Shown one piece after another: positions 5,515 through 42,692 of a DNA stretch of 47,841 bases (the first letter of the stretch is position 1; each line of letters begins with the position of its first letter). The translations under genes and the position numbers were made by a program. The notes beneath the pieces are model-generated. The model saw nothing but the letters and a program-made list of their open reading frames with translations, was not told the DNA's origin and did not search any database. The DNA lies in NCBI GenBank assembly GCA_041551115.1, contig JBFENN010000002.1, positions 1 through 47,841 on the forward strand. The letters run 5' to 3'. This DNA comes from Anaerolineales bacterium. GTDB lineage: Bacteria; Chloroflexota; Anaerolineae; Anaerolineales; UBA4823.

Positions 5515-5527
5515 ATTCGATCCATTC

Positions 5528-6523: not shown

Positions 6524-6524
6524 G

Positions 6525-8111: not shown

Positions 8112-8138
8112 ATTAAACTCGTCTCATCAAGGTGCTGC

Positions 8139-8987: not shown

Positions 8988-9104
8988 TCCGTGCTCCTAG
9001 TAATCTCTTCTCCTACATGCTGTCTCTGCTTCATTCGAAGGTGACCTTATAATTCATGGTTCAATTAAGATGTCGCTATTTCCAGTATCTATCTATTTAT
9101 GAGA

Positions 9105-9120
9105 ACACATTTTACATACT
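9105..9120 (-). promoter_or_regulatory. Weak half-site copy of the candidate GntR operator, upstream of the transporter/epimerase operon
   Basis: The plus strand reads ACACATTTTACATACT. The minus strand reads TGTAAAATGTGT, which matches one arm plus the spacer of the TGTAA-N4-TTACA palindromes at 10081 and 11291. Confidence 0.35.
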
Positions 9121-9314
9121 GCGGGTCGAATGAAGCAATGGGTGGGTCTCTGAAACTGTAGTGTAATTAGGTTGATTCATTTCTTACTACTTATCAAATC
9201 AAAATCACCCAAAAAGGTCGAAAGGTTGGAGATTTACACCGCTGCCATTTATAACGGTTGATATTCCGCTAGCACTGGGCTATTGCGGTGAGATAGCATT
9301 TTACAATAAATCCA

Positions 9315-10073: not shown

Positions 10074-10108
10074 GGTAAAATGTAATATTTTACATGTGAT
10101 ATGTTACC
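10074..10108. promoter_or_regulatory. Candidate GntR operator cluster in the gntR / xdhC-like divergent region
   Basis: GGTAAAATGTAATATTTTACATGTGATATGTTACC. It contains the perfect palindrome TGTAA-TATT-TTACA (10081-10094), an overlapping ACAT-N5-ATGT, and the outer inverted repeat GGTAA...TTACC. Confidence 0.55.
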
Positions 10109-10189
10109 AAGATTTAATTGCATTGTCAATAGCTCACCCTAGAAGCGGCTATATTGAAACTATGGGAGACCAAAATTGAGAGAAACGAG

Positions 10190-11230: not shown

Positions 11231-11257
11231 AAAATTGGGCATATTGGGAGGGTGGTA

Positions 11258-11286
11258 TTGACAAAGAAAGCACCCCTCTTTATAAT
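11258..11286 (+). promoter_or_regulatory. Consensus sigma70-type promoter of the plus-strand catabolic operon
   Basis: TTGACA (11258-11263), exactly 17 bp of spacer, then TATAAT (11281-11286). Confidence 0.7.
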
Positions 11287-11290
11287 GAAT

Positions 11291-11319
11291 TGTAACATTT
11301 TACATTTTACATGTAACAT
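11291..11319. promoter_or_regulatory. Candidate GntR operator directly downstream of the -10 element
   Basis: TGTAA-CATT-TTACA (11291-11304), then the perfect 10-bp palindrome TTACATGTAA (11307-11316). The sequence ATTTTACATGT is shared with the 10081 site. Confidence 0.55.
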
Positions 11320-11430
11320 ATTAACACACGGGTCAGTTACCAGTTGCCCTACATTCTGGGCATGCCATTCCTTATCCATCAAACGCAGTATATACGTACA
11401 TACCGTTTCTCAGAAAGCAGGAGGCAGGTT

Positions 11431-12249
11431 ATGAACCCTGATGAGACCCGTAAAGCCCACTCACACACTTCTGTCCTGGAAAAACTATTCGGCCTAAGTG
11501 GCCGGGGTGCAATTGTCACCGGTGCTGGGCGCGGGTTAGGCAGGGCGATGGCAGCTGCATTAGCTCAAGCCGGTGCGGCTGTTGCCCTCTTTGATATTAA
11601 CTTGGAAGACGTTCAAGCTGCAGCTGCTGAGATCCAGGCCATGGGATGCAAAGCAGTTGCAGCCCAAATCAATGTAACGGAAGCTGAACAAGTCCAAGCT
11701 GGCATTAAGCTTGCGGTCGATACATTAGGACATATAGATATTCTCGTAAACAATGCCGGGGTCACTAGTCGAGCACCATTTGAAGAACTTGAAGAGGACG
11801 ACTGGGAGCGGGTGCTGCGGGTCAATTTGGGAGGCACTTACCAATGCACCCGTTGGATGGCGAAGCACTTAATCGACAATGCCAGCAGAGGATCAATCAT
11901 TAACATCGCCTCAATATCTGGACTGATCGGCAATCGCGGGGGCTACAACAGCCACTACTGCACAACAAAAGGCGGTGTAATAGCTATGACGCGCTCGCTT
12001 GCAGTTGAATGGGCTCCTCACGGCATTCGGGTCAATGCCATCGCACCAGGCTACATGGTCACCCCAATGACAGATCGCTTGAAGAATATTAATCGCGAAT
12101 TTTACGACGAATTGGTCGGGAGAGTTCCCATGGGACGATTTGGCGAAGGAACCGATTTGGCTGGTGCCGTCATCTATTTGGCTTCTCAGGCCTCAAAATT
12201 TGTGACCGGGAATATACTAGTTGTAGATGGCGGTTATACAGCCTGGTAA
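11431..12249 (+). CDS. Short-chain dehydrogenase/reductase (gluconate-5-dehydrogenase / KduD-like)
   Basis: VTGAGRGLG cofactor motif, LVNNAGV, and the catalytic YCTTK motif. An AGGAGG RBS lies 6 nt before the ATG at 11431. The track ORF from 11344 is an upstream extension. Confidence 0.9.
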   Translation: MNPDETRKAHSHTSVLEKLFGLSGRGAIVTGAGRGLGRAMAAALAQAGAAVALFDINLEDVQAAAAEIQAMGCKAVAAQINVTEAEQVQAGIKLAVDTLGHIDILVNNAGVTSRAPFEELEEDDWERVLRVNLGGTYQCTRWMAKHLIDNASRGSIINIASISGLIGNRGGYNSHYCTTKGGVIAMTRSLAVEWAPHGIRVNAIAPGYMVTPMTDRLKNINREFYDELVGRVPMGRFGEGTDLAGAVIYLASQASKFVTGNILVVDGGYTAW

Positions 12250-27260: not shown

Positions 27261-27626
27261 ATGAGAGTGACAATGCACACAATCGAAGACATACAAGCCA
27301 ACCTACCCCTCACCGAAGTGACCTACTTTATTTTACTCAGCTTAGCATCTGCCCAAAAACATGGCTATGCCATTATGAAGGATATCGAAGCGATGAGCCA
27401 CAAACGCGTTTCGCTCAGTACGGGTACGTTGTATGGCGCTTTAAAACGATTGCTAGAACAAGGTTTGATCTTGCGCAGCGATGAGGGTGAGACCAATCAC
27501 TCAGGACGAACCCGTAAGAACTACCGCCTAACAGAGTTGGGTTACCGCGTTCTACAGGCAGAAGTGCACCGTTTGGACAACTTAGTAACCGCCGCCCAAC
27601 TGCGATCTATCCATGAAAGCGCGTAA
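27261..27626 (+). CDS. PadR-family transcriptional regulator
   Basis: LTEVTYFILLSLASAQKHGYAIMKDIEAMSHKRVSLSTGTLYGALKRLLEQGLI...KNYRLTELG is a classic PadR winged-helix pattern. The ATG at 27273 is an alternative start. Confidence 0.9.
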   Translation: MRVTMHTIEDIQANLPLTEVTYFILLSLASAQKHGYAIMKDIEAMSHKRVSLSTGTLYGALKRLLEQGLILRSDEGETNHSGRTRKNYRLTELGYRVLQAEVHRLDNLVTAAQLRSIHESA

Positions 27627-27686
27627 AATTCCACTCCTACAGCGTGCGTGTTATTAACCAAGGCATACTGATCAAGAAGGGCAATT

Positions 27687-28499
27687 ATGGTTTCTGATGG
27701 AATACCCCTCCCAAAATCTGAAACCTGGATCAGCACACTGGCTGCATTAGCTTTATTTACGGTGGCGGGTATTGTGTTAATCATGATGGAGATCCCACAC
27801 GAATGGGGATACGACGATCTTCTGCTGAGACTGAGACCTGTTTTTATCGGCTGGCTGTTGGTAACAGCAACTGGGTATTGTATTGGATGGATAAAGAAGT
27901 TCCCGCGCTGGTCATATCCCTATACCACGCAGATGGTTCTGTTTAGTCTTTACTTGATGCATGTTTCTACACCTGGACTGCGGATCTTCGGTTATACATT
28001 CGGAAGCAGTGACTCGTGGGGCTGGCGGGCATGGCTCCCGGCCATACTGGCCACGCTCATAGCTTTGCTTGTCACACGTTCACTCCAGCCGATTGGAGTA
28101 TTCCTCCAAAGCATTTGGGAAGATTGGACCCTAGGCGTTTTTGCTTCATACAGCCTGTTGCCGCTGATAATCTTTGTTATCTATGATGAGATGGACCGTT
28201 TGTACACCCTATACTGCATGGTCGCGCTTTCTCTGATGATTCTCGGAACTGTTCTGCTTTACATGCGCAGCCGTACTTTCCAGCAGCGGGCAATTACACT
28301 AGCCCTAGGTACGTTGCTAGCCGTTTCTTTCGCCTTTTTTTCGATTGAGGCCTATTGGTCCGGTCAAGGGAACACCAATTTTGACATTATTCGAACCGCT
28401 ATTACGATCCTAGTGATCTGCACATTCATATTTTCACCAGCAATTATCGGATTATTTCGGCGATTCAGCTTAAGAAGTTCAACAATAAAGGCGTTTTGA
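27687..28499 (+). CDS. Polytopic membrane protein of unknown function (FPRWS-motif family, member 1)
   Basis: 270 aa with ~8 hydrophobic helices. The motif GWIKKFPRWSYPY is shared with the next gene. It follows PadR by 60 bp. Confidence 0.6.
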   Translation: MVSDGIPLPKSETWISTLAALALFTVAGIVLIMMEIPHEWGYDDLLLRLRPVFIGWLLVTATGYCIGWIKKFPRWSYPYTTQMVLFSLYLMHVSTPGLRIFGYTFGSSDSWGWRAWLPAILATLIALLVTRSLQPIGVFLQSIWEDWTLGVFASYSLLPLIIFVIYDEMDRLYTLYCMVALSLMILGTVLLYMRSRTFQQRAITLALGTLLAVSFAFFSIEAYWSGQGNTNFDIIRTAITILVICTFIFSPAIIGLFRRFSLRSSTIKAF

Positions 28500-28500
28500 C

Positions 28501-29574
28501 ATGAAGCGTAACTGGTCATCCCAATTGTACAAATGCATCCTCTCCTTATTTCCCGACCGTTTCAAACTCGAGTTTGCAGAAGAAATGCAAGCCGTTTTTG
28601 ATCAAGCCCTGAATGATGCCAGCAAAAACGGTTGGCCTGCAGAAATTCACCTGCTCCTAAAGGAAATTGGCTGCTTGGCAAAGACCGCACTGAGCCAACG
28701 CTGGTGTGACACGCGCGATGATATCCTCCACCCGACATCCAGCGATACAGAAGTACACATCCCTACTTTACGGAAAGAGATTGTCTTAGCATTATTGGTT
28801 TTTGCCATACCCATAGTCAATGTATGGTTTAGAACTTCGTCGGATATCTCTATTGGGCTGCTTGCCGCGACCGCGTGCATCTTGTTTCTGGCGGGTTTAC
28901 TTAAGGGATTCCCACGCTGGTCGCTGCCCTCCTTGGGGTTGGCTTTATCAGCACTGAGTTTTGTTTTCCTTTTCCAGTGGCTAACCGACAGGCTCACTCC
29001 TACCTTCTTATACGAACATGACCTGTTTGCTCTGAACGCCAGCAACCAGGTATTGATTGGTGCATTATGGTCTGGCCTGATGTGGTTCAGCCTGTTCACC
29101 TTCACGCTTGTCATCATTGGGCTGATGGCGCTCATCCAGCGCTTCAGGCGATTTTTCTGGCAGGTGCGTAATGATTGGACATTGGTCTCATATATATTGT
29201 ACAGTGGGGCATTTTTCACCCTAGTCATGACATTCGATCAGTACCACGGTGAGAGGACCTATGCCATTGCCAGCCTATTTTGCTTAGCAACGGGTGCTTG
29301 GTTGTATCTGCTCAGCAAACGCCAGTGGCAGCGAACGATATCTCTGTTATCTGGTTTGACGCTCGCGATAGCAATTGTTATCTTAAACCAGTGGACGCTT
29401 ATCCCAAGCTCGGAGGGTAGGTATTGGTTAATCTGGACTAGCAGCACTAGTACAGCCTGGTCAGAGACTCGCCGGTTGCTGTTTGAATGGGGCTGGATGG
29501 TTGCAATCCTTATTGCACCAATTTGGCTGCGCTCCTTACCAAGGCCAAACCGGCACCGTCGACTGAGGCTGTAA
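28501..29574 (+). CDS. Polytopic membrane protein with an N-terminal 'permease prefix'-like cytoplasmic segment (FPRWS-motif family, member 2)
   Basis: The N-terminus ILSLFPDRFKLEFAEEMQAVFDQ resembles the prefix domain seen on PadR-linked permeases. The motif GLLKGFPRWSLPS is paralogous to the previous gene. The junction TGAcATG suggests coupling. Confidence 0.65.
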   Translation: MKRNWSSQLYKCILSLFPDRFKLEFAEEMQAVFDQALNDASKNGWPAEIHLLLKEIGCLAKTALSQRWCDTRDDILHPTSSDTEVHIPTLRKEIVLALLVFAIPIVNVWFRTSSDISIGLLAATACILFLAGLLKGFPRWSLPSLGLALSALSFVFLFQWLTDRLTPTFLYEHDLFALNASNQVLIGALWSGLMWFSLFTFTLVIIGLMALIQRFRRFFWQVRNDWTLVSYILYSGAFFTLVMTFDQYHGERTYAIASLFCLATGAWLYLLSKRQWQRTISLLSGLTLAIAIVILNQWTLIPSSEGRYWLIWTSSTSTAWSETRRLLFEWGWMVAILIAPIWLRSLPRPNRHRRLRL

Positions 29575-29606
29575 TAAAGAAAACTGTGTCGGGCGGATCG
29601 AATCTA

Positions 29607-30860
29607 ATGACAAGCCTACTTCTAGCAGTTGGTCTATTTGCGCTCATTGTCCCATCCCTTATCGTAGTCTTAGCCGCAGAGCGAATATCCACATTTGGGC
29701 AATCACAAAACGTCACCCGCAACAAGGTATTGTTCCTGCTTCTAGCAACCATCGGATTACTGTTGTTGTTCTTGGTCAACGCTGTAAGCTTTTCGGATGG
29801 GAGGTTCCAGTTGCCAGCGCTCATCTTGTTGCCAACCTTGGTAGGGTTGCTCGCCTTGTGCATCATCCGCTGGCGAGAATTTCTGAGTGTCTGGAAAAAG
29901 AACCGGGTGCTGATCTCAGGATTGCTACTTGTTACCATCGTTTTGATCATCAGCCTGGGAACAGCACCAGTGACAAATATTGTGCCCATCGTGATTCCAA
30001 TACTGGCATTGTTGACCGCTCTGAGCTGGGTAGCGATTCAGCAAGCAAGCTTCCGGATAGTGGAGGTCGGGGGGATATTGATTGCCGGATACCTATTCAT
30101 CGATGCAGTTGGCATAACCAGCAACCCCACATTCACCGCTGTAGACTGGCTGAATTCTTCATTGTCCTTTGCCCGGGCTCTGGGAGTACTCCTCGCTTTG
30201 ATCCTGATTGCTGCGCTGATCCACCGTATCCAGAACGACAGCAGCACTGACAGCAAGCCCTTCGCTTCAACCGCAACCGGGATAATAATTCTGTTGTTGT
30301 TAGCTTTAGCCAGCGTTGAAGTGCGCGATGGGGTATTGGCAAAAGCGACCGGACGGGCAGCGGAAGATCACGCCCCGCTCATTGAAATCCTGCTCGCGAT
30401 CCTCAACGGAATGATCTTAATAGGCGTGTCTTCAAAGCACAAGCGGTTCATTGCTATCGTATATACAATCCTGTTGCCAATACTTCTTCTTGGAGCATAC
30501 AGCGCAGGTTGGCAGCTTGAACCACAGGTGATCACACAATCAAGGGCCGATCACCTGGTGCAAGCGGTTGAGCGTTTCCAAAGTGAACAAGGTTTCTATC
30601 CAGACAATCTCAATGCCCTAACCCCCCACTATATGCCATATATCCTCGGTCCTTTAACCGGGCGCGGCCAGGTATGGTGCTACCAAAGCGGCGCAAATTT
30701 TTACCGCCTTGGATATGCTTATTACCAGCGTTATTATGGACCAACTTTTCCGGCAGGTTATTCAGAGGTACGCATACATGCTGCGGTCGGAGAGCCACCA
30801 GCAGGACCATGGATGTGTGATGAAGAATTAGCAAAAAACCAAACCAGATTAGGTTTATGA
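29607..30860 (+). CDS. Polytopic membrane protein with a C-terminal extracytoplasmic domain
   Basis: About 10 TM helices, then ADHLVQAVERFQSEQGFYPDNLNALTPHYMPYILGPLTGRGQVWCYQ...YRLGY, a pseudopilin-G-like 'Y..G.YP..L..L.P.Y' fold signature. I chose the ATG at 29607; the track ORF from 29487 overlaps the upstream gene. Confidence 0.6.
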   Translation: MTSLLLAVGLFALIVPSLIVVLAAERISTFGQSQNVTRNKVLFLLLATIGLLLLFLVNAVSFSDGRFQLPALILLPTLVGLLALCIIRWREFLSVWKKNRVLISGLLLVTIVLIISLGTAPVTNIVPIVIPILALLTALSWVAIQQASFRIVEVGGILIAGYLFIDAVGITSNPTFTAVDWLNSSLSFARALGVLLALILIAALIHRIQNDSSTDSKPFASTATGIIILLLLALASVEVRDGVLAKATGRAAEDHAPLIEILLAILNGMILIGVSSKHKRFIAIVYTILLPILLLGAYSAGWQLEPQVITQSRADHLVQAVERFQSEQGFYPDNLNALTPHYMPYILGPLTGRGQVWCYQSGANFYRLGYAYYQRYYGPTFPAGYSEVRIHAAVGEPPAGPWMCDEELAKNQTRLGL

Positions 30861-30917: not shown

Positions 30918-32489
30918 ATGTTAAGAGAAATCAACAGAATATTTGAAAAACTACCATTTTTAAATAGTCGTTTCCGCAGGTTTGACAACCAACCGCCAGG
31001 CGAGTTCGATTTACGGAAATGCTTGCTGAATGCCATTTTGATCGCGCTCTGGTTTTGGCTGTACCGCGGGGTTTACCCATACCTCGGGACGATTTTCTCC
31101 AAACAGGAATTCCGGATAAACCAAATTGTATTGTTAGGCGTGCTGGTTTTGGTTGGGATGCAGGTTAAAAAACGCGGATTGACCATCCGGCTGGATAGCT
31201 CCGCTCAGTTTTACACCCCAGCCATCGTCATGGTTCTCATTGGTTCAGCGTTATATCTGCTCAGCGAACGTTTCCTGGATATTAATACGCTGTCGGCAAC
31301 TTTATTCGGGTTGGCTAGCTATGGACTACTTGGGCTCTGGATGCAGCCAAATCACTGGCGTCGTGGTTTGCCGGCTGCCCTGCTCTTCATCGGAGCGCTA
31401 CCCTTCGGCGAGCATCTGCAAACCTTTGTCGGCTACCCGGTTCGCATCCTGACGGCAACCATCGTTGGCGACGGATTAACTAAACTGGGGATTGGCACAG
31501 TGGGTGTGGATACCATCCTGATCTTTGAGAACGGGATCTCGAAAATTGACCTGCCATGCAGCGGGGTAAAGAGTTTGTGGAGCGGTGGGCTATTTATGCT
31601 CGCTGCGACATGGATAGAACGCCGATCCATCAACATGCACTGGTTCTTGATTGGGACAACCTTCATCGTTATGCTCTTGGCAGCAAACCTTGCCCGCGTC
31701 GCAATTTTGGTCACCATCGGTCAAGTTGTCGGTTGGCATTTATTTGCCGAGATGCTGCATGTTCCGTTAGGTGTCTTGGGATTTGTTGCCGCGTGTTCGT
31801 TGCTTTTGGTCCTTCTGCGCTGGAGGGTTCCAGACCGGTTAGTAGTGAATAATCGCCCTGCGGATGATTACACATCCCCGATCCGTCCTGCCTGGTTAAC
31901 AACTCTGCTGGGGTTGATCATCCTGACAATGGCACTGCTCTACACGCCACGACCTCAGACCGCCCGTGCTCACCCATCTTCTGACGTTGAGTTCACTGCA
32001 GACTGGGATGCCACCCTCTGGGCACTCTCATCGGGTGAACAAGAATGGTTAGCCCGTAGTGGTGTCCAAGGGGCTCAGCGCTGGCGTTTCCGCTTTGGCG
32101 AGCTCTCAGGCTCGCTTCTTTTCGTCTCTAGTAATACCTGGCGTTCCCACCATCGACCTGAAAGATGTTTCGAAGTCTATGGATTGCAGACCGACAGATC
32201 ATACACGAGCCTGATCGCGAGTGACTTCCCAATCCGCGTGCTCACATTGAGTGGAGACCAAGGCAATCACCAGTTCTCCGCAGCCTACTGGCTCCAATCT
32301 GAGGACCAAACAACCGATGACTACGCCACCCGCATCTGGGACGATTTGACACCCGAGAGACAACCTTGGGTGTTGGTTACGATCTTGTTTGATGAAGTGA
32401 TTGATCCGCAATCGGGCGCAGCCACTGCTCTATTTCGCTCCCTAGAAGAGATTGTCGACAGTAGCTTCGCAGGAGGTATTCCCCAATGA
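30918..32489 (+). CDS. Exosortase-family transpeptidase fused to a C-terminal EpsI-like domain
   Basis: The catalytic-Cys context is KIDLPCSGVKSLWSGG (Cys214, nt 31557-31559). The N-x-x-R motif is AANLARVAILV and a downstream His lies in WHLFAEMLHVPLG. The C-terminal ~190 aa carry the EpsI-like motif HHRPERCFEVYGL and AAYWLQSEDQTTDDYATRIW. Confidence 0.8.
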   Translation: MLREINRIFEKLPFLNSRFRRFDNQPPGEFDLRKCLLNAILIALWFWLYRGVYPYLGTIFSKQEFRINQIVLLGVLVLVGMQVKKRGLTIRLDSSAQFYTPAIVMVLIGSALYLLSERFLDINTLSATLFGLASYGLLGLWMQPNHWRRGLPAALLFIGALPFGEHLQTFVGYPVRILTATIVGDGLTKLGIGTVGVDTILIFENGISKIDLPCSGVKSLWSGGLFMLAATWIERRSINMHWFLIGTTFIVMLLAANLARVAILVTIGQVVGWHLFAEMLHVPLGVLGFVAACSLLLVLLRWRVPDRLVVNNRPADDYTSPIRPAWLTTLLGLIILTMALLYTPRPQTARAHPSSDVEFTADWDATLWALSSGEQEWLARSGVQGAQRWRFRFGELSGSLLFVSSNTWRSHHRPERCFEVYGLQTDRSYTSLIASDFPIRVLTLSGDQGNHQFSAAYWLQSEDQTTDDYATRIWDDLTPERQPWVLVTILFDEVIDPQSGAATALFRSLEEIVDSSFAGGIPQ

Positions 32490-35374
32490 AAAATCAGAAG
32501 TCAAATTACGCCTTGATTGACTACTTTGCTTACGGGCTATTTTGGTCGTGGAACGTCATCTTCCTGGCCTTTATGGTATTGGGTTTTGCCCCCCAGGTCG
32601 TGCCCGAATTACTCGTTGAAGTACGTGCGGGCTTGATCCCGATCAATTTCCTGGTGTACGCCTCAGTGCTCAGCGTTATCCCGTTAATCGCCGTACTCTT
32701 AGGGGCAACCGTTCTACGTAAAAAACCACGTAAGCTTTTCGCCCTCGGCTATGTGGTCGAGGGACCGCTTATGCTGCTGCTTGCGATGCGTTTTTTCCTG
32801 ATCCGCCAAGCCCCGGCCTCCCTGACACTACTTTTAGCGGTTGCGTCCATAGGTATGGGGACTTTCCTATGGTATTTATTGGATACCCAAATCGAGAGGA
32901 GAGGTCGCCTGTTTGGCTATCTTCGTTTGATCGGGCTCACCATGATGTTGATCACAAGCCTGTATGCGGCTTTGTGGATCGCGTTTTATGCAATCCCAAT
33001 TACAGGTGCCGTCATAGATTGGTTTGTGAGGACGATCGCGAATGCACGTGAATTCATCACCAGTTTTAGATATGATCTTCAAAGCATACTCAGTGAGGGG
33101 TGGGCATTGATCCCCTTGATCGTACTAGGGTTTATTCTGCTTGTGTATACTGCAACGCTCTTTGTATTAGCGCCAATTGTTATCCCGGTGTTGAGTTGGC
33201 GATCATGGTGGCAGGATTTGCGGATCCAAAAAACCCTTCACGGGTGGGCAATACCGGCTTCAGCTTCAATATTGACTGTTGTTTGTGTCGCTTTACTCGC
33301 AATCTTTGCCAACCGACAACCGCAGCAGAAAGCTTTCGCTCTCTTAGAAACACCCCCCTCTTCACCCGAAGAAGTCCAGAAATTAATCGATCAGAGCGAT
33401 ACGATCCGCTCAGGGTTGTTGAACGCATACTTGTCTTCATTTCGTTACATGAGTGCTCAAGGCGAGGTACGCCATATTCGCGTTATGTACGAAGATACGT
33501 TTGACATGCCGCCTGAGAAAGCCTATCGCATCCAACGAGCATACGAAAGAGTTGCCAGCCCATTATTATACGATCCAATTCAGAAGCAACTCCCCAGCAG
33601 TTTGAGGGATAATTTGGCTTTCCAGCGTGAACCTCAAGCGGCGGCGAAACTATACCAAGAATTCTTTGATGCACCCATCATTGAGGGGGAGAAAGAAGAA
33701 GTGGTGCGCGCAGTCCGCGCTACTTGGTCGGGCAATCAAGCAGAAGCAGCTTGGCAAGCCGTGGATGACCGCGAAGTGCACTTGGTCCAACAGGGGATCA
33801 ACATAGAAGAACATGGTGACTGGGCTGAAGTAGAACTGTACGAGGTGTATCAAAACCAGACTACCGATCTTGAAGAAGTCATCTATTACTTCAATTTACC
33901 TGAGTCAGCTGTCCTGACAGGAGTTTGGTTGGGGAACAGCCCTGATCGAAACGAGCGGTTCAATCCCATCGTGGCACCACGTGGGGCTGCACAGGCAGTC
34001 TATCGTAATGAAACCCGGCAAAACCGTGACCCGGCATTATTAGAACAAATCGGACCACGGCAGTATCGTCTGCGCGCCTACCCTGTCCCCCGCATGCTCC
34101 TCACCCGTGCAGAAGACCAATCACAGCGACTAATTGAGCAAGCTGAACCATTACATCTCTGGTTGACGTATACAACCTTTGCCCAGGAAGATTCCTGGCC
34201 GCTTCCACAGATTTCAGACCAAAGAAATGTATATTGGGACAGCGGTACCGAGCGCCTAATCAATGGTGAGCCAGCCGTGGTCGAGGAGGATGCCTGGTTG
34301 CCTGCCTCCGTTCCAGCTTCCCAAGAAATCGTTATGACCACTCACCGGTATGATTTTCCCAATGGAATGAGTGTAACTGCAGAACCGGTATCCTATACCA
34401 ATCTGCCAACGAATGACCCCGATAAACAGTTTGCAGTTGTTGTAGACAGGTCTTTCAGCATGGCAGAACATGCCGACGCGGTGACAGAAACGCTCGCTGA
34501 GCTTGCGACATTGACCAGCCCAAATCATGAAATCGATGTCTATTTGACCGCCTCGTCTTTCCGAGGGGAAGACCCCACACGCACTACATTAGATGAACTT
34601 GCTCCGGAAGGTATCGTATATTTTGGTGGACAGAACGCTGCTGAATTGTTATCCCAGTTCGAGAACCTGCGTGCGGGAGATACCTATGATGCAGTTCTAG
34701 TCCTCACCGATGGTAGTGGTTATGAGCTGGGTTCTTCTGATGTTGAACTTCCAGTCCCAGAATCCCCGATTTGGATCGTTCACGTAGAGAGTGATATCCC
34801 CCTTGGTTATGATGACGAAACGCTGCAGGCTATCCAAGCGTCTGGCGGCGGTGTAGTACCAGATCTCGATCAAGCACTCGCCAGGGTTTACTTACCATCC
34901 GGGTCGGGTAACCAGTACAGCGACATCATCGATGGCTACTTATGGGTTGTGCTGCCCACAGAAGAGGCTGACTTGGAAGCAGGAGTGTCCCCCGAAGGCA
35001 TTAATGAATCCGGCTTCGAGGCAATGGCTGCCCGCCAATATATCAATGCTGAAATTCAAAACCAGCGCGGGGTCATAGATGAGCTCGCCACACTGGATGA
35101 GTTCCATGCTTTTGCAGAAGCGTACGAGATCGTAACACCGTACTCTTCGATGATCGTCCTGGTCAATCTACAGCAGGAGAACCTATTAGATCGCCTGGAA
35201 GAGGGTACCGATCGGTTTAAACGCGAGTTTGAAGAGCTGAATAACACAACCCCTGCCACACAAGTTCCATTGACAGGGGTGCCAGAGCCAGAAGAGTGGC
35301 TGCTGCTAAGCCTCGCCGCGACTTTATTGGTCTGGTATGCTTACCGGAAACGTCTGGCACCGCAAACCAGATAG
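32486..35374 (+). CDS. PEP-CTERM integral membrane protein: N-terminal polytopic region, VIT-like domain, vWA domain, and C-terminal PEP-CTERM sorting signal
   Basis: The first ~280 aa contain ~8 TM helices. VIT-like block EVIYYFNLPESAVLTGVWLG. The vWA MIDAS motif is VVVDRSFSM (DxSxS) with LVLTDGSG. The tail GVPEPEEWLLLSLAATLLVWYAYRKRLAPQTR (nt 35279-35371) has PEP, a TM helix and a basic cluster. An ATGA overlap joins it to the exosortase gene, and a GGAGG RBS is present. Confidence 0.85.
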   Translation: MKNQKSNYALIDYFAYGLFWSWNVIFLAFMVLGFAPQVVPELLVEVRAGLIPINFLVYASVLSVIPLIAVLLGATVLRKKPRKLFALGYVVEGPLMLLLAMRFFLIRQAPASLTLLLAVASIGMGTFLWYLLDTQIERRGRLFGYLRLIGLTMMLITSLYAALWIAFYAIPITGAVIDWFVRTIANAREFITSFRYDLQSILSEGWALIPLIVLGFILLVYTATLFVLAPIVIPVLSWRSWWQDLRIQKTLHGWAIPASASILTVVCVALLAIFANRQPQQKAFALLETPPSSPEEVQKLIDQSDTIRSGLLNAYLSSFRYMSAQGEVRHIRVMYEDTFDMPPEKAYRIQRAYERVASPLLYDPIQKQLPSSLRDNLAFQREPQAAAKLYQEFFDAPIIEGEKEEVVRAVRATWSGNQAEAAWQAVDDREVHLVQQGINIEEHGDWAEVELYEVYQNQTTDLEEVIYYFNLPESAVLTGVWLGNSPDRNERFNPIVAPRGAAQAVYRNETRQNRDPALLEQIGPRQYRLRAYPVPRMLLTRAEDQSQRLIEQAEPLHLWLTYTTFAQEDSWPLPQISDQRNVYWDSGTERLINGEPAVVEEDAWLPASVPASQEIVMTTHRYDFPNGMSVTAEPVSYTNLPTNDPDKQFAVVVDRSFSMAEHADAVTETLAELATLTSPNHEIDVYLTASSFRGEDPTRTTLDELAPEGIVYFGGQNAAELLSQFENLRAGDTYDAVLVLTDGSGYELGSSDVELPVPESPIWIVHVESDIPLGYDDETLQAIQASGGGVVPDLDQALARVYLPSGSGNQYSDIIDGYLWVVLPTEEADLEAGVSPEGINESGFEAMAARQYINAEIQNQRGVIDELATLDEFHAFAEAYEIVTPYSSMIVLVNLQQENLLDRLEEGTDRFKREFEELNNTTPATQVPLTGVPEPEEWLLLSLAATLLVWYAYRKRLAPQTR

Positions 35375-35467: not shown

Positions 35468-36382
35468 TTACAAGGGAATCGAGCGGACAGCTGGTAGTAT
35501 GTGCTCAACCACATCCGATTCATCAACCGGTTGAGGGATATCATTAAACAAATACCATACTTCAACATGCTCAACATGCTCACCTGGTTCAAGCGTGATC
35601 AGCGGGGCAAGGGTTTCCAGTTCCAGGATATCGCTGTCCGTATAAATCTGGACATTGGCATTCATGTCTGGATAGCGCACATCCGGCTGGAAAGTATAGC
35701 GCTTTACGAATAAATGACCTGCACGCGCGTAAGCCGTCCAACCGTCCAAGGTATAGGCGCCTATCTTCTGTGGGCTGGATCGGGCAGGGTCTTGTCCAAG
35801 CAAAATAAATTGTGTTCCCGTTACAAGGAGCGGATCGGATAAATCCGTGTAAGCCCACAAGCTCAGTGTATTGACCGGAAGCAGATTTTCAGGGTGGGGA
35901 CCTCGTGGGGGTAAAGGGATGATACCAACACCATTTTGCGCCATGTCAGTCTGGCACCAGGGTGCCAGCTCAACCGGCCATAGACCGTGGTTACATAAGC
36001 GATGAAGGATTGTAACTATAGCCCCAGCCTCATCGATAGATATTTCCATCTCCTTTTGGATACCAGAGAGTGCTTCAACAGGTTGGATGAGGTGGATTTT
36101 ATTCTCCTTAACCTTCACTTCAATGGGAAGATTATCAGGTAAATATGAACGTGGTGCAGCCTCCGGAGCATGCCACAAGCGATGCCCACCATATGGGTGC
36201 CATAATTCACCACCGGTCTTGCCAACCTGGTCATCAAATTCATGAAACTCGTTTTCCTCCCCAATAAACCCGAACCGGATGATTCGTGGTCCGACATCTG
36301 TAGTGGCAATAAGATCAATTCGGTTATTGGCTAATCGATAGCAATTGTCCCAACCGCGATATGTGACTTTTTCAATATCCAC
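35468..36382 (-). CDS. Hypothetical protein, DUF4380 / mutarotase-like (low-confidence family call)
   Basis: WDNCYRLANNRIDLIATTDVGPRIIRF...GGHRLWHAPE recalls PF14315. AGGAGG lies 6 nt before the GTG at 36382 (VDIEKVTYRGW), so I prefer that start over the track ATG at 36415. Confidence 0.55.
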   Translation of the reverse strand: MDIEKVTYRGWDNCYRLANNRIDLIATTDVGPRIIRFGFIGEENEFHEFDDQVGKTGGELWHPYGGHRLWHAPEAAPRSYLPDNLPIEVKVKENKIHLIQPVEALSGIQKEMEISIDEAGAIVTILHRLCNHGLWPVELAPWCQTDMAQNGVGIIPLPPRGPHPENLLPVNTLSLWAYTDLSDPLLVTGTQFILLGQDPARSSPQKIGAYTLDGWTAYARAGHLFVKRYTFQPDVRYPDMNANVQIYTDSDILELETLAPLITLEPGEHVEHVEVWYLFNDIPQPVDESDVVEHILPAVRSIPL

Positions 36383-36573
36383 AAATGACCTCCTCATGCT
36401 TTGGTCAAGCAGCATTAAGTGATACTAGGCATAATAATAAATCATACTTTAGCCAGGAGACCCTGTAAATACAAATATTTATGCCAGGCCGCTTCTTGGA
36501 GGAATCTCATACGATATGCGAGAATAAATCGTAAGATACCCCATACCATCCCTGGTTTCAGTATAATTACTAT

Positions 36574-36714
36574 ATGCCAGGTCAAGGCTTCAACATCCAG
36601 TGCTTTTCAATCCACGATGGACCGGGTATCCGCACCAGCTTCTTCTTGAAAGGGTGCAACCTAAAATGTTATACAAAGATCCTGCCGGCAGATATGTGTA
36701 TCACCTATACATGA
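36574..36714 (+). pseudogene. 5' remnant of a glycyl-radical-enzyme activase (radical SAM) gene
   Basis: Own translation: [32 protein letters not shown]. This matches the activase N-terminal pattern ([23 protein letters not shown]) and then breaks off before the CxxxCxxC cluster is complete. The 46-codon ORF ends at 36714. Confidence 0.6.
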
Positions 36715-36977
36715 TCCAACTCAGTGAAGACCACCCAGTGCGTAAAAGCGATTTTATGTGGGAACTCTATACCCGGAGAGGGATAAAAGCTTGGTCGCAT
36801 TATATGCTTATTCATATTACTGAACCTTACCGTGCCCGTGGGCACCATGAGGAGGAGTGTCCCACAGCAGAAGAAGTCGTAACGAAGCACATTACCCTGC
36901 CAATTCACCCACGGCTTACCTTTGAAGCCATAGATTATATGTCAGAATGCATAATTGACTTGAGTAGAAAACAATAA
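36666..36977 (+). pseudogene. 3' remnant (about the last third) of a DegT/DnrJ/EryC1/StrS-family aminotransferase gene
   Basis: [10 protein letters not shown]...RKSDFMWELYTRRGIKAWSHY...CPTAEEVVTKHITLPIHPRLTFEAIDYMSECI follows the C-terminal third of the DegT pattern (HLY.I...GI....HY...P.AE......LP.HP.L). The PLP-lysine region is absent. Confidence 0.7.
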
Positions 36978-36986
36978 GAGACAGTC

Positions 36987-38276
36987 ATGTCATCAACGGA
37001 ATATATCACCGACATGTTAACCGGTAAAAATGCAAAAAGATATTACAGAAAACTATATGGAAGCGATCTCGGAATTATCGAAACCCAAACCCAACGCTAC
37101 CTGAGACTTGCAGATACTTTTTGCTTGGAATTTCCAAATCAAAGCAAACCCGATTTCTTCAGTGCTCCCGGTAGGACAGAGGTCGGTGGTAACCATACCG
37201 ACCATAATGCTGGGCGTATCCTGGCAGCCGCAGTAGACTTGGATATTGTTGCCGCTGCAGTCCCAAATAACGAGAATGCCATCCGTATGCATTCGAACGG
37301 CTTCCCACTTGACGAAATAGATCTAAATGATTTATCCATTCGCGAATCAGAAAGATACAGCTCGACAGCCATTATCCGAGGGGTTGCTGCTCGTTTCCAA
37401 CAGCTCGGATATCGCGTGGGAGGCTTTGATGCCACTGCAATTAGCTCAGTACCAAAAGGATCCGGTTTGAGTTCTTCTGCGGCATTTGAAGTATTAATCG
37501 GGCTCATACTCTCCCATTTTTACAACAATGGCGATCTAGACCCGGTATTACTCGCGAAGATCGGGCAATACGCAGAAAATGAATACTTCGGTAAGCCCTG
37601 TGGGTTAATGGACCAAACCACCAGCGCGGTTGGCGGATTCGTAACAATAGATTTCAACGACTTTGAAAATCCTATTGTAAAGCAAGTAAGTTCCGACTTC
37701 GCGGCTAGTGGATATTCGTTGGTGATCGTTGATACTCGGGGTGATCATGCTGATTTGAATGATGAATACACTGCACTTGAGAATGAGATGAAAGCAGTGG
37801 CCCATACGCTGGGTGGAAAAGTACTGCGGGAGTTCAACGACCATACCGTGCTTAACCAAATTGGATACCTAAGAAGCCGGGTCAGCGACAGAGCGATCTT
37901 GAGGGCTTTGCACTTCTACGGGGATGACCATCGGGTTGTTGAGCAAGTGCGGGCCCTCGAGGACAATGATTTCCCCCGTTTTCTTGATCTTATTATTGAA
38001 TCTGGGTCCAGTTCATGGATGTACTGCCAAAATGTATTTGCACCGTACGCAGTACAAAAACAAGAACTGGCAATTGCGCTGGCAGCCAGCCAGGGCTATC
38101 TTGAGGGTCGCGGCGCCTGGCGGGTCCATGGCGGTGGATTTGCAGGAACGATCCAGGCATTTATCCCCAATAACATTTTGCCTGGGTATATTGAGATGAT
38201 GGAAAATATTTTTGGAACTGGGGCTTGCCATCTACTGCGAGTGCGACCGGTTGGAGGAGTAAGGATGTTGGATTGA
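36987..38276 (+). CDS. galK: Galactokinase-family GHMP kinase (long form)
   Basis: PGRTEVGGNHTDHNAGRILAAAV (galactokinase signature variant), the GHMP ATP motif PKGSGLSSSAAFEV, and the C-terminal RVHGGGFAGT. Confidence 0.8.
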   Translation: MSSTEYITDMLTGKNAKRYYRKLYGSDLGIIETQTQRYLRLADTFCLEFPNQSKPDFFSAPGRTEVGGNHTDHNAGRILAAAVDLDIVAAAVPNNENAIRMHSNGFPLDEIDLNDLSIRESERYSSTAIIRGVAARFQQLGYRVGGFDATAISSVPKGSGLSSSAAFEVLIGLILSHFYNNGDLDPVLLAKIGQYAENEYFGKPCGLMDQTTSAVGGFVTIDFNDFENPIVKQVSSDFAASGYSLVIVDTRGDHADLNDEYTALENEMKAVAHTLGGKVLREFNDHTVLNQIGYLRSRVSDRAILRALHFYGDDHRVVEQVRALEDNDFPRFLDLIIESGSSSWMYCQNVFAPYAVQKQELAIALAASQGYLEGRGAWRVHGGGFAGTIQAFIPNNILPGYIEMMENIFGTGACHLLRVRPVGGVRMLD

Positions 38277-38593: not shown

Positions 38594-40156
38594 ATGAAAT
38601 CTGACTATCAAAACCTATTCCAGGTGCTGATTTTTACCAGCATGCTTTGCTTTTTACCGACCAAACCCGTCATTGGCGCGCGGGTGGGCGCTGATTCGCC
38701 AATACCAAAAACACAGCTGCTCTTGTTAAATGAGAACCACCATGTTCCCTTCTCGGGCGTGGTACAAGATAGTATCCTGCTAGGTGAACCTCTAGATGAA
38801 GACGGTCCATTGACTACCAACACATCTGGCGACCCAAATCCGGTTGAAGTTAATCAACCACTGGATATCAGCGCAACTGTTGACGATAGCTATTTTGGCG
38901 CCTCTCCCATCGCCTCCGCACAGTACAGCCTGGATAACGGTATTCATTGGTTTCCACTAAATGCCGTAGATGGAATATTCGATCAAGTTAGTGAGCAGGT
39001 ACAGGCAACCATCCAGGCACCTGCGGTAGCAGGAAATTATTCATTATGTGTGCGCGGTACCGATATCAATGGAAACACGGGAATGAGCGCATGCGCAAGT
39101 CTTGCGGTCTTTGTGCCGGACCTTCAAGGACCGCAAGTAATTGACCTAATGCTTGACCCCAACCCAGCGCTCACAGGTCAGTCGGTAACATTGTCAGCTG
39201 TAGTAAGCGACCAAACTACTGGTGGCTCATTGATTTCTGGTGCAGAGTACAGTCCAGATAATGGGGTGAATTGGCAGCCGCTTGCAGCTGTTGATGGTGA
39301 TTTCGATGCTGTCATCGAGCAGGTGTCCGTTGTTGTGCAAGCTCCCATGACCGCCATAAGTGTAGCCTATTGTGTGCGCGGCACGGATGAACCAGGCAAT
39401 ACCGGACAGAAATTCTGCATTACTCTGGGTGTCTATACATCCGATCAAGCTGGGCCTAGCACGATTAACCTAGTTGCAGATCCAAATCCTCAAGAGATCG
39501 GTCAAGAGCTATCAATTTCGGCAATTGTTGATGACCGGTTCACGGGCAATTCGCCGATCCAAAGCGCAGAATACAGCTTTGATAACGGGGTAAGCTGGCA
39601 TGCCATGCTGGTTGCCGATGGCGCCTGGGATGAGAGCATCGAAGGGGTATGGGCACAGGCAATTGCACCTGACCCGGCTGGATCCTACGAACTGTGTGTC
39701 CGCGGTCGCGACAGCAACGGTGATACAGGTCCCAAAACCTGTCTATCGCTGCTGACAATGACTCCAGACAATCAAGGACCGCTCTGCAGTGCAGTTTCAG
39801 CAGCACCCAATCCGGTTGAGGTGCAAACGCAGTTAACACTGACCGCAGCGGTTGATGAAACTAGCACGGGTGGGACATTGATCCAATCTGCCCAGTACAG
39901 CCTAGATAATGGGGTCTCCTGGTCAGAAATGAACCCCCAAGACGGTGCATTCGATGCGCTGCAGGAGAATGTCATTGTCAATATTACGGCACCGAATGAG
40001 GCAGATGTTTATGACCTGTGTGTGCGTGGTATCGATCAAAACGCTAATATTGGCGAGAGTGAATGCACCCAGGTTAGCGTATATGCCACCACAGCCCAGC
40101 AAGACCTCACTCATCGCTTGAGCTTCCCTTTATTGATGGCCAATTTTCAACACTAG
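38594..40156 (+). CDS. Secreted repeat protein with 4 x ~109-aa two-Cys beta-sandwich-like repeats
   Basis: Signal-like N-terminus. Four units start at DEDGPL, DLQGPQ, DQAGPS and DNQGPL. Each unit carries PNPv...ls.sA.VDD..tGgs.I.SAeYS.DNGv.W..m.a.DG.FD...E.V...i.AP...G.Y.LCVRG.D..GNtG...C..l.V. Confidence 0.75.
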   Translation: MKSDYQNLFQVLIFTSMLCFLPTKPVIGARVGADSPIPKTQLLLLNENHHVPFSGVVQDSILLGEPLDEDGPLTTNTSGDPNPVEVNQPLDISATVDDSYFGASPIASAQYSLDNGIHWFPLNAVDGIFDQVSEQVQATIQAPAVAGNYSLCVRGTDINGNTGMSACASLAVFVPDLQGPQVIDLMLDPNPALTGQSVTLSAVVSDQTTGGSLISGAEYSPDNGVNWQPLAAVDGDFDAVIEQVSVVVQAPMTAISVAYCVRGTDEPGNTGQKFCITLGVYTSDQAGPSTINLVADPNPQEIGQELSISAIVDDRFTGNSPIQSAEYSFDNGVSWHAMLVADGAWDESIEGVWAQAIAPDPAGSYELCVRGRDSNGDTGPKTCLSLLTMTPDNQGPLCSAVSAAPNPVEVQTQLTLTAAVDETSTGGTLIQSAQYSLDNGVSWSEMNPQDGAFDALQENVIVNITAPNEADVYDLCVRGIDQNANIGESECTQVSVYATTAQQDLTHRLSFPLLMANFQH

Positions 40157-40334
40157 CGATTGTCAATCAATGCCCACTCCCTTAGACAACTATTACCAGA
40201 AAAATGCAGCATGTTAGTGCCATGCTCAAGATGAAAATTAACGGTTATTCTTCAACCGTCAATAGGCACTATTACTGCACCGCCACAGAGATGAGTGTGT
40301 AATAACTTCTATATCTAGCTAGGAGAATAATTTA

Positions 40335-42692
40335 ATGAAAACTGCACAGAAAGCGTTTGTTATCCTTGTTATCATAGCCCTTTCAATCCCCATGGCTCCA
40401 ATGCAGCGTGTTTTCAGCGCACCAGACCCGGTTGTCAGCCCCGGTGTGGACTCGGATGCCATGTTGGTTGGCGCCGTTAAATATCGTGCCTTTACGGAGG
40501 GCACACCCACCACGACTACTGGTGTTTATTTAGGTATCCCGAACCTCAATAATAAACATTATCGATCCGAATTGGACTTGCAGTGGACCAACCAGAATGC
40601 AATCACGTTTACATACGATGTCGCCAGTGACTGGTTGACTGCCGAGGTCACCAATGCGAATGGGTCCTGGGCAACAATATACAACAATTTCTCAGCGAAC
40701 GTTACCAGCCGTGTATTCGGAGGCGATACTTCCACTGCAAACAATGTACTCGGTGGTTTGAATTACCTGGAGATCATCATTCAGCTGAGAAAAGACCAGC
40801 CAACTCTACTATCGCTGCATGATGTACACCTAATCGATGAACACTCCGACGATTACTCATTAGGCAATTTCATCGGTGACAAAAATGCAGATGCAAGTGA
40901 ATGGATGGTCACCGGGCACGACATATCAGGTGGTTTTGTCCTCACCGCTGACCTGCACTCGACAAATGTGATCGGTCCAGATGACCTAAACAATATCATG
41001 ATTAGCTTTGGCTACCAAGATCTTTACGGTCCAGTGACTTCTAATGTCGTCACATCTGCTAATCCCGTGGTAGTTAGCACAAGCATGACAGTAACTGCTA
41101 CAGTAGACGATACGACTACCGGTGGTTTGCCAATCCTGTCTGCAGAATACAGTCTCGATGGCGGTTTCACCTGGGGAGCAATGAATGCGGTTGATGGCTT
41201 ATTTGATGGAGTCAGTGAAGATGTCACTGTGACCAGACTGGCTCCAAGTAACACTGGCACATATGATCTCTGTGTCCGGGGAACGGATTCCGCCAACAAT
41301 ATTGGAGAAATGTCCTGTATATATCTATATGTCCTGCCTGTCTTCGATGATCAAGGACCGCTTGCCGAGAATGTAGATATAGATTCAAACCCGATAGTTC
41401 TCAGCAGCGTGATGACCATCACAGCTACGATTGATGACTCCACGACTGGCGGGTCACCAATCCAGTCATCTGAATTCTCTATGAACGGAGGCGCGACATG
41501 GAGCCCGATGGGCGCCGATGATGGCTCTTACGGTGATGTTACGCAAGATGTTATAGCATCTTCAACCTCACCGGATACGCCCGGCAACTATCAGCTCTGC
41601 GTCCGGGGTACCGATATGAGCGGTAATACTGGTGAAATGGAGTGCGTTACACTCTTCGTCACCCCAGCTGGCGATGTGACAGGTCCACTATCTGACCAGG
41701 TAATCGCATCCCCAAATCCTGTGGCTGTCGACACAAGCATGAATGTCACTGCTGCAGTGGACGACACAACCACCGGCGGATCACAAATCGCATTCGCCGA
41801 GTTCTCCCTGGATGGGGGCAGCACTTGGATTGACATGCAGGCAGTCGATGGCGCTTTTGACGAGGTAGCTGAAGATGTAACCGTATCTTCAACCTCACCC
41901 GATACGCCCGGCAACTATCAGCTCTGCGTCCGGGGTACCGATATGAGCGGAAATACTGGCGGTATGGCTTGCGTTACCCTCTTCGTTACCCCAGCTGGCG
42001 ATGTGACAGGTCCATTATCTGACCAGGTGAGCGCATCCCCAAATCCTGTGCTTGAGAGTGGGGCGCTGACTGTTTCTGCAAGCGTAGACGACATGACCAC
42101 CGGCGGATCACAAATCGCATCTGCCGAGGTCTCCCTGGATGGGGGCAGCACTTGGGCTGACATGCAGGCAGTCGATGGCGCTTTTGACGAAGTGACTGAA
42201 GATGTAACAGTATCCACGACCGCACCAGACATGAACGGCAATTACCTATTGTGCATCCGTGGTACCGATATGAGCGGTAATACTGGTGAAATGAAGTGCG
42301 TTACACTAGCAGTACATGCCGAAGACAATGAAGGACCATTAGTGAGTGACCTCGCTGCACTGCCAAATCCGGTAATAATCGATCACGTGTTCGAAGTCAG
42401 TGCGCTGATCGATGAGAGCACTACCGGCGGCGCTGATATCGCGGGTGCAGAATACAAATTTGACACGGGGCCTTGGGTAGCTATGGATGCGCAGGATGGC
42501 GATTTTAATGAAGTTTCTGAAGTTGCCATCGCGTCACACAATGCTCCCAACACACCGGGTGAGTACACCTTGTGTGTGCGCGGGAGTGATTCCTTTGGGA
42601 ACACCGGTAGTGCGGAATGTATTACCGTAACTGCTTATATTCCCAAGTTGTACTTACCTATCGTCGTGGTTGCTACAAGTGCTAGTGAGTGA
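40335..42692 (+). CDS. Secreted repeat protein with a ~200-aa unique N-terminal domain plus 5 x ~109-aa repeats of the same family
   Basis: AGGAG RBS and signal peptide MKTAQKAFVILVIIALSIPMAPMQRVFSAPD. The repeats start at D229 (nt 41019) with a period of 327 bp through ~42650. They share the consensus of 38594-40156. Confidence 0.8.
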   Translation: MKTAQKAFVILVIIALSIPMAPMQRVFSAPDPVVSPGVDSDAMLVGAVKYRAFTEGTPTTTTGVYLGIPNLNNKHYRSELDLQWTNQNAITFTYDVASDWLTAEVTNANGSWATIYNNFSANVTSRVFGGDTSTANNVLGGLNYLEIIIQLRKDQPTLLSLHDVHLIDEHSDDYSLGNFIGDKNADASEWMVTGHDISGGFVLTADLHSTNVIGPDDLNNIMISFGYQDLYGPVTSNVVTSANPVVVSTSMTVTATVDDTTTGGLPILSAEYSLDGGFTWGAMNAVDGLFDGVSEDVTVTRLAPSNTGTYDLCVRGTDSANNIGEMSCIYLYVLPVFDDQGPLAENVDIDSNPIVLSSVMTITATIDDSTTGGSPIQSSEFSMNGGATWSPMGADDGSYGDVTQDVIASSTSPDTPGNYQLCVRGTDMSGNTGEMECVTLFVTPAGDVTGPLSDQVIASPNPVAVDTSMNVTAAVDDTTTGGSQIAFAEFSLDGGSTWIDMQAVDGAFDEVAEDVTVSSTSPDTPGNYQLCVRGTDMSGNTGGMACVTLFVTPAGDVTGPLSDQVSASPNPVLESGALTVSASVDDMTTGGSQIASAEVSLDGGSTWADMQAVDGAFDEVTEDVTVSTTAPDMNGNYLLCIRGTDMSGNTGEMKCVTLAVHAEDNEGPLVSDLAALPNPVIIDHVFEVSALIDESTTGGADIAGAEYKFDTGPWVAMDAQDGDFNEVSEVAIASHNAPNTPGEYTLCVRGSDSFGNTGSAECITVTAYIPKLYLPIVVVATSASE
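41559..42212 (+). repeat. Two near-identical 327-bp tandem units inside the repeat-protein gene
   Basis: The unit at 41559-41885 matches 41886-42212 with long identical runs, for example gatacgcccggcaactatcagctctgcgtccggggtaccgatatgagcgg and ccagctggcgatgtgacaggtcca. The mirrored antisense ORFs 41591-41914 and 41918-42241 in the track confirm the period. Confidence 0.9.

Follow-up and report, generated by a model that had tools for sequence, protein, structure and literature searches.

In the classical PEP-CTERM/XrtA system there are many substrates per genome, which carry a signal peptide and no internal transmembrane (TM) helices and are encoded apart from the enzyme; PEP-CTERM proteins are confined to bacteria with an outer membrane and genes for exopolysaccharide (EPS) (Haft, 2006, PMC1569441). 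A three-member integral membrane protein family, given without an accession, was described in the same study as the one exception among PEP-CTERM proteins, and this family is probably TIGR02921. Adjacency of the enzyme and target genes marks dedicated sorting systems of one enzyme and one target, multi-target systems being without such adjacency (Haft, 2011, PMC3237569). Here we describe an exosortase O (XrtO) gene and the adjoining gene for a TIGR02921-family PEP-CTERM integral membrane protein (the substrate) from an Anaerolineales bacterium. Both lie in a stretch of 47,841 nt (the window), which makes up the whole of contig JBFENN010000002.1 (assembly GCA_041551115.1). It is probable that they form a two-gene cassette of a Chloroflexota (Anaerolineae-like) genome, in which XrtO would process a single dedicated TIGR02921 substrate at its PEP motif.

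VIT/vWA homologues have been described with GlyGly-CTERM, PEP-CTERM or LPXTG tails, the last together with a dedicated sortase (Haft, 2011, PMC3237569). In TIGR03788, the "marine proteobacterial sortase target protein", correctly brought up in an earlier sequence-only reading of this DNA, one VIT/vWA protein has one C-terminal sorting enzyme of its own, the sortase TIGR03784, encoded beside it (PMC3237569), an arrangement presumably shared by our locus. The two systems differ in their tails and enzymes (LPXTG and sortase there, PEP and exosortase in the window), and in TIGR03788 the VIT domain starts at profile position 4, so that there is no N-terminal TM block. The substrate is not a member of that family; its score of 21.9 bits (cutoff 551.65) reflects a weak local VIT similarity.

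The window pair shares with the classical PEP-CTERM/XrtA system the C-terminal PEP motif, the TM helix, the basic cluster and an EpsH-family enzyme with Cys, Arg and His (PMC1569441), but the substrate is polytopic and adjoins its enzyme, only one tail of this kind is present in the window, and EPS genes are not found nearby. From TIGR02921 and XrtO (TIGR04489) as already curated by NCBI, the pair shows no structural difference, with the same architecture and adjacency. Its classification is therefore ordinary and is left unchanged by this analysis, both the family and the partner enzyme having been curated beforehand, though uncharacterized. The sorting-system ideas of the sequence-only reading are likewise not new (Haft, 2006, PMC1569441; Haft, 2011, PMC3237569). 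Absent from the family descriptions that we found are the resemblance of the entire outer domain to the fold of inter-alpha-inhibitor heavy chains (ITIH), the number of TM helices (seven), the conserved polar residues within them and the strong representation in Anaerolineae.

The exosortase O gene and its pairing with the substrate

The XrtO gene (30918..32489, + strand) encodes a protein of 523 aa that scored 368.2 bits with TIGR04489 (cutoff 250) and 77 bits with Pfam Exosortase_EpsH, and that also matched the XrtT and XrtN models over most of its length. A polytopic exosortase core, at about residues 43-302, is followed by one more TM helix and a soluble C-terminal domain of about 180 aa. 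When 61 orthologues were compared, P213-C214-S-G216, N257/R260 and H281-x-P-L-G285 of the core were at least 97% conserved, and so were H412, P414, E415 and R416 of the C-terminal domain. The stretch H412-R-P-E-R-C may resemble EpsI.

The substrate gene (32486..35374, + strand, 962 aa) was found exactly where the sequence-only reading had placed it. Its membership in TIGR02921, a family brought up there, was confirmed with the NCBIfam model: the score was 687.8 bits, against a cutoff of 200, and the match took in positions 9-922 of the 922 in the profile. The stop codon of XrtO overlaps the substrate start by 4 nt (ATGA), and an AGGAGG at 32471-32476 stands 9 nt ahead of the substrate ATG at 32486. 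Because of these two features of the junction (32471..32489, + strand), the two genes are probably translationally coupled.

A search among 5.8 billion proteins returned 930 homologues of the substrate. None of the top 120 is truncated or less than 52% identical, and many carry the record names "TIGR02921 family PEP-CTERM protein" or "putative PEP-CTERM system integral membrane protein". When a profile of residues 1-430 was searched against 1.84 billion representatives, 478 clusters were obtained. Among the best 150 of them nearly all were proteins of 900-1000 aa or fragments, the N-terminal block being seen solely in TIGR02921-type architecture or in fragments. Members of TIGR02921 were present in Chloroflexota (Anaerolineae, Ardenticatenia, Caldilineaceae and Thermoflexales) and in cyanobacteria, for instance in a Synechococcus metagenome-assembled genome (MAG). 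The nearest relative among the loci compared was that of an uncultured Chloroflexota MAG (L001), with a substrate 85% identical and a synteny of nine genes.

Of the 80 related loci, 75 have XrtO upstream of the substrate and on its strand. The remaining five are cut short by a contig end that lies under 460 bp upstream of the substrate, and setting these aside leaves 75/75 testable Chloroflexota loci. The same order was also observed in two distant loci, L081 and L082, the second of which comes from the cluster with the Synechococcus MAG protein. Within the window the only PEP-CTERM-like tail is that of the substrate. The flanks of the related loci, about 1.03 Mb with 807 open reading frames (ORFs), contained 77 PEP-like tails, 75 of them in the TIGR02921 family and the other two doubtful. 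Since the two genes adjoin across lineages, XrtO and the substrate are assigned, by the adjacency rule of Haft (2011, PMC3237569), to the dedicated enzyme/substrate pairs, and the substrate is presumed to be the sole target of XrtO.

XrtO could otherwise be an exosortase of broad range that serves numerous substrates encoded at other places in the genome, its position beside this one being incidental. The tails were counted in the window and its relatives' flanks, and in one locus (L030) a further PEP-like tail is possibly present, some 3 kb downstream of the substrate. Nevertheless, an adjacency that holds in 75/75 loci and in two distant lineages, with the genes overlapping or abutting, is not what is known of multi-target systems (Haft, 2011, PMC3237569), and only two other tails, both doubtful, were found among the 807 flanking ORFs. 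We leave only a very slim chance to this explanation.

Some of the related loci showed peculiarities of their own. In L018 (2818-7001), the sole locus in which XrtO and the substrate stand apart, about 2.7 kb separate them, and the insert includes a homologue of the 457-aa membrane protein of the window described below. The L030 tail mentioned above belongs to an ORF of 506 aa (10105-11625) with the C-terminal end ...LPPEPIFLLGLILYGVLLFTFAWWRLRRL, which is possibly a second PEP-CTERM substrate. In L001, a long-read MAG, XrtO and the substrate are each broken into several ORFs (5393-9900), the result either of frameshift errors in the assembly or of real pseudogenization. The locus L076 (JAYTNY010000733.1), labeled as a Roseobacter sp. 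MAG, contains XrtO and TIGR02921 proteins that share 45-49% identity with the Chloroflexota pair of the window; this contig was probably binned wrongly.

Topology, sorting tail and outer domain of the substrate

The N-terminal block of the substrate (residues 14-275; 32525..33310, + strand) is predicted to cross the membrane seven times. Seven hydropathy peaks were obtained in the average of 31 homologues, at residues 14-35, 50-76, 84-105, 111-132, 147-171, 205-237 and 254-275, with the tail helix as the eighth TM helix of the protein. The helices of the AlphaFold2 (AF2) model (mean pLDDT 77.8, pTM 0.66) agree with these peaks. Stretches rich in Lys and Arg, found at the N-terminus, at 77-83 and 238-253 and in the C-terminal tail, take turns with neutral stretches, a pattern that places residues 276-935 outside and the N-terminus inside by prediction. 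This outer region of about 660 residues is acidic, with a family mean of 53 K+R against 96 D+E and a net charge of about -43. If the soluble region is to be outside together with the PEP motif, the number of N-terminal TM helices must be odd. The multi-pass N-terminus proposed in the sequence-only reading therefore stands, while its count of about eight helices is corrected to seven by hydropathy, the K/R pattern and the AF2 helices. The puzzle raised there, that the unprocessed protein would be held in the membrane by each of its ends, holds and fits this topology. Several TM segments ahead of a PEP-CTERM tail are also a trait of TIGR02921, and they are present in the substrate.

The tail, GVPEPEEWLLLSLAATLLVWYAYRKRLAPQTR, constitutes the PEP-CTERM sorting signal (35267..35371, + strand) and is laid out as GVPEP-EEWLLLSLAATLLVWYAY-RKR: G931-V-P-E-P935, with PEP at 35282-35290, is followed by a helix, W938-Y953, and by the basic R954-K-R956. 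The helix is predicted to re-cross the membrane and to leave the RKR in the cytoplasm. Conservation in the substrate was counted over 105 representatives, which are 29-51% identical. P933 was kept in 102/105, E934 and P935 each in 100/105 and W938 in 91/105, and the pattern conserved in the family is GVPEPxEW, helix, RKR. The VPEP tail noted earlier was thus recovered, and a lack of PEP conservation in the orthologues, for which the tail was checked, was excluded. On the tail alone TIGR02595 reached 18.2 bits, above its cutoff of 16, and Pfam PF07589 stayed below threshold (13.7 bits against 20.7).

The conservation of the tail bears on whether it is cut at all. The C-terminal helix might be a permanent second anchor that is left uncut, with XrtO as a stable partner or assembly factor. 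No report of cleavage for the TIGR02921 family was found in the literature, and a protein held by seven TM helices does not need to lose its tail to be retained in the membrane. A plain anchor, on the other hand, would not be expected to keep P-E-P in at least 100 of the 105 representatives at such low identity; moreover, the Cys, Arg and His of XrtO are kept at 97% or more, and the tail passes TIGR02595. We consider a permanent anchor very unlikely, and processing at PEP is the reading followed here.

Next to the membrane, on its outer side, residues 276-430 (33311..33775, + strand) form a helical linker, with AF2 helices at 279-426. Its mean pairwise identity, 0.37, is above that of the TM block, and Q278 was kept in 105/105. 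Residues 431-640 (33776..34405, + strand) form a VIT-type beta-sandwich region, which is the most conserved part of the substrate (mean pairwise identity 0.47). PF08487 matched residues 443-535 with 31.8 bits, above the gathering score of 26.5; residues 465-483, VIYYFNLPESAVLTGVWLG, which had been quoted in the sequence-only reading as a VIT-like block, lie inside this match, in agreement with that reading. Residues 831-927 (34976..35266, + strand), which make up the C-terminal module of the outer domain, contain the motif TPYSSMIVL, in which S887, S888, M889, V891 and L892 are at least 93% conserved. Pfam scans gave nothing credible for the linker, for this module or for the C-terminal domain of XrtO.

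The region between the VIT-type sandwich and the C-terminal module (residues 641-830; 34406..34975, + strand) is a divergent vWA domain, identified by the fold of the model and by near-invariant ligands rather than by Pfam. Its secondary structure in the AF2 model follows the alternating beta/alpha order. When the model was compared with known structures by Foldseek, the best match was inter-alpha-inhibitor heavy chain 1 (ITIH1, 6FPY), to which residues 431-927 are similar in their entirety; it was obtained with E = 1.6e-12 and a probability of 1.00 over about 620 columns and takes in the VIT, the vWA and the C-terminal module. Weaker matches of the vWA region were obtained with the vWA domain of CMG2 (1SHU, TM-score 0.47) and with those of Cav alpha2delta. 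The Mg2+ ligands of ITIH1, D298, S300, S302 and D403 (PMC7170535), correspond to D654, S656 and S658 (34445-34459) and D742 (34709-34711) of the substrate, the same four D-x-S-x-S...D ligands. These were kept in at least 103 of the 105 representatives, six Thr at position 656 being counted as conservative. Metal-dependent binding of a ligand by the predicted site is plausible.

Within the TM block the helices are more conserved than the loops (pairwise identity 0.31 against 0.22). N23 (94/105), E92 (89/105, plus 12 Gln) and R102 (104/105), polar or charged residues that are near-invariant inside TM helices, suggest that the block has a role beyond anchoring. When the block was modeled alone, no fold relative was found in the PDB (best E 0.13, TM-score below 0.25). 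An identity as receptor, transporter or enzyme was rejected, as the matches were merely noise of the G-protein-coupled receptor type, with a root-mean-square deviation above 20 Å.

These residues would also suit a different outcome, in which XrtO hydrolyzes the substrate without transfer and the cut acts as a maturation switch, an integrin-like change in the head altering a signaling or transport activity of the seven-TM block. ITIH1 has been described as integrin-like, and conformational effects dependent on its MIDAS, an adhesion site that requires a metal ion, have been proposed (PMC7170535). The conserved polar residues inside the TM block agree with such a switch, and so does the fact that genes for the synthesis of an acceptor were not found nearby. 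Sortases and archaeosortase, by contrast, transfer rather than hydrolyze where they have been tested, and no channel, transporter or receptor was found to share the fold of the TM block. Hydrolysis as a switch thus appears to us unlikely, and we return to processing by a dedicated XrtO, whichever the fate of the new C-terminus.

Proposed processing and relation to other families

By analogy with sortases and the archaeosortase ArtA, XrtO would recognize GVPEPxEW on the outer side of the membrane, where it would cut off the C-terminal helix at or near PEP through a thioester on C214. The thioester would then be hydrolyzed, or the new C-terminus would be passed to a nucleophile of the envelope. 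The processed product would stay held by the seven-TM block, changing from a protein anchored at both ends to one anchored at one end. Because the block remains, the product could not be exported, unlike ordinary PEP-CTERM proteins. Its VIT-vWA head, freed or newly attached, might from then on use the metal site to bind a ligand, in adhesion or in contact with a matrix or sheath.

Several points weigh against this reading. Literature searches found no experimental report on any TIGR02921 or XrtO protein, and nothing relevant on TIGR02921, XrtO, MSEP-CTERM, XrtN or exosortases in Chloroflexi. We infer the cleavage itself, its site and the acceptor by analogy, and the claim of a single substrate is based on flanking DNA. 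No polysaccharide (EPS) genes were found in the neighborhood of the cassette, so that an acceptor is not suggested by the association with EPS that is common for exosortases. The remaining points concern the outer domain. No Pfam vWA model reached threshold on the full substrate; VWA_2 gave E = 0.26 on the isolated vWA region (12.4 bits against 27) and matched 5 of 14 relatives, at best with E = 2.9e-4. In sequence profile searches of the PDB, the full-length substrate had no match at E up to 1, and the vWA region had one weak vWA-like match alone, 3RAG, at E up to 10. The global TM-scores of the ITIH1 match are low (0.23-0.33), which may reflect differing orientations of the domains. Finally, no conserved MIDAS Thr was found among the 105 representatives; Q716, in GGQN, was considered as its substitute and dropped, as position 716 is variable across the broad family. 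Of the vWA domain with an intact MIDAS that the sequence-only reading had described, the DRSFS at 654-658 was found again, and the domain itself is seen by its fold.

The likeness to ITIH extends to processing. In ITIH heavy chains a C-terminal pro-domain is lost as the new C-terminus becomes ester-linked to chondroitin sulfate (PMC7170535), and a C-terminal segment is predicted to be removed from the substrate as well. The differences are considerable: ITIH1 is about 11% identical to the substrate in sequence, ITIH proteins are secreted, eukaryotic and without a TM block, the pro-domain is a soluble one of about 240 aa where the substrate has a PEP-CTERM helix, and neither the enzymes nor the chemistry of processing are related. 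Since the new C-terminus of ITIH is ester-linked to a glycan (PMC7170535), transfer to a glycan is a concrete, though hypothetical, possibility for the substrate too, and the shared fold, together with the cut and the glycan linkage of ITIH, suggests by analogy a concrete and testable chemistry.

Two further exosortase-linked families were compared with the substrate, which belongs to neither. MSEP-CTERM TIGR04286 gave 26.4 bits (cutoff 150), with weak collinear matches of TM6-7 (residues 205-276) to profile positions 284-359 and of the VIT (449-534) to positions 485-566 of 920; the TM6-7 match was also found in 7 of 13 relatives, with a best E of 4.9e-4. The VIT protein of the XrtN system, TIGR04477, gave 22 bits (cutoff 250), with a weak collinear match of the C-terminal module and tail (871-956) to positions 747-821 of 822. 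Both systems differ from the window pair in their tail motifs and partner exosortases. The MSEP-CTERM matches suggest that this may be a sister family with the same plan of polytopic block, VIT and sorting tail. Because of the weak collinear MSEP-CTERM matches and the matches of XrtO to the XrtT and XrtN models, there is a hint that the exosortase-linked families descend from an ancestral enzyme/substrate pair and were not recruited independently each time. The idea, put forward in the sequence-only reading, that VIT-vWA modules repeatedly recruit dedicated sorting enzymes is thus supported as regards a dedicated exosortase, by the adjacent XrtO in 75/75 and two distant loci, and tentatively questioned by the MSEP-CTERM hints as regards independent recruitment each time.

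Taken furthest, these comparisons would have the new C-terminus of the VIT-vWA part joined covalently to a polymer of the envelope, in convergence with ITIH, and the seven-TM block left in the cytoplasmic membrane. In filamentous Chloroflexota and cyanobacteria the protein would thereby act as a covalent staple that ties the membrane to the wall or sheath, with the XrtO-, MSEP-CTERM- and XrtN-linked families as one ancient staple superfamily. This is a speculative extension, and we regard it as distinctly improbable. The narrower reading, processing by XrtO of one dedicated substrate, would have practical value of its own. Classical substrates are hard to follow because they are many, diverse and exported. 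The XrtO pair would be a minimal system for exosortase chemistry, with one enzyme and one substrate, probably co-translated, and since the seven-TM block would keep the product in the membrane, its processed C-terminus should be recoverable for mass spectrometry.

Genes surrounding the cassette

The neighbors of the cassette include an MFS (major facilitator superfamily) transporter, a PadR regulator, membrane proteins without family, a mutarotase and a galactokinase. Upstream of XrtO and on its strand lie the PadR-family regulator (27261-27626; PF03551, 59 bits) and three genes for polytopic membrane proteins to which no family could be assigned, of 270 aa (27687-28499), 357 aa (28501-29574) and 457 aa (29487-30860). 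The genes from 27261 to 30860 overlap or are separated by 60 nt at most, and are possibly the upstream part of the transcription unit of the cassette. In about 20 of 81 loci the order PadR, homologue of the 357-aa protein, XrtO, substrate recurs, and because of this recurrence it is proposed that PadR may control the cassette in some members of the family. Promoter and terminator scans gave no boundaries for the operon, as their counts did not stand out from those of shuffled sequences (16 against 11.4±3.3 and 12 against 9.5±3.0, respectively).

The 357-aa gene was placed with XrtO by ORF clustering, but its consideration as an XrtO homologue was rejected, as no homology was detected by BLASTP; merged ORF calls had probably chained the two together under single linkage.

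Downstream, at 35468-38276, a mutarotase-like gene (TTE1925-type, 330 bits against a cutoff of 550) is convergent with the substrate gene and is followed by a galactokinase-like gene of the GHMP family. These genes for sugar use are unrelated to the cassette and are conserved in L001 alone. Farther upstream, a protein of 889 aa (21702-24371, + strand) shows an odd combination of domains: Phage_holin_4_2 (four TM helices) at the N-terminus, a segment of the type I phosphodiesterase/nucleotide pyrophosphatase kind and, at the C-terminus, the membrane domain Yip1. Additionally, two adjacent genes at 38594-42692 (+ strand) encode proteins of 520 and 785 aa that are homologous to each other and carry BNR/Asp-box, Y_Y_Y and Ig-like repeat signatures; judging from these signatures, both proteins are probably secreted or located at the surface.

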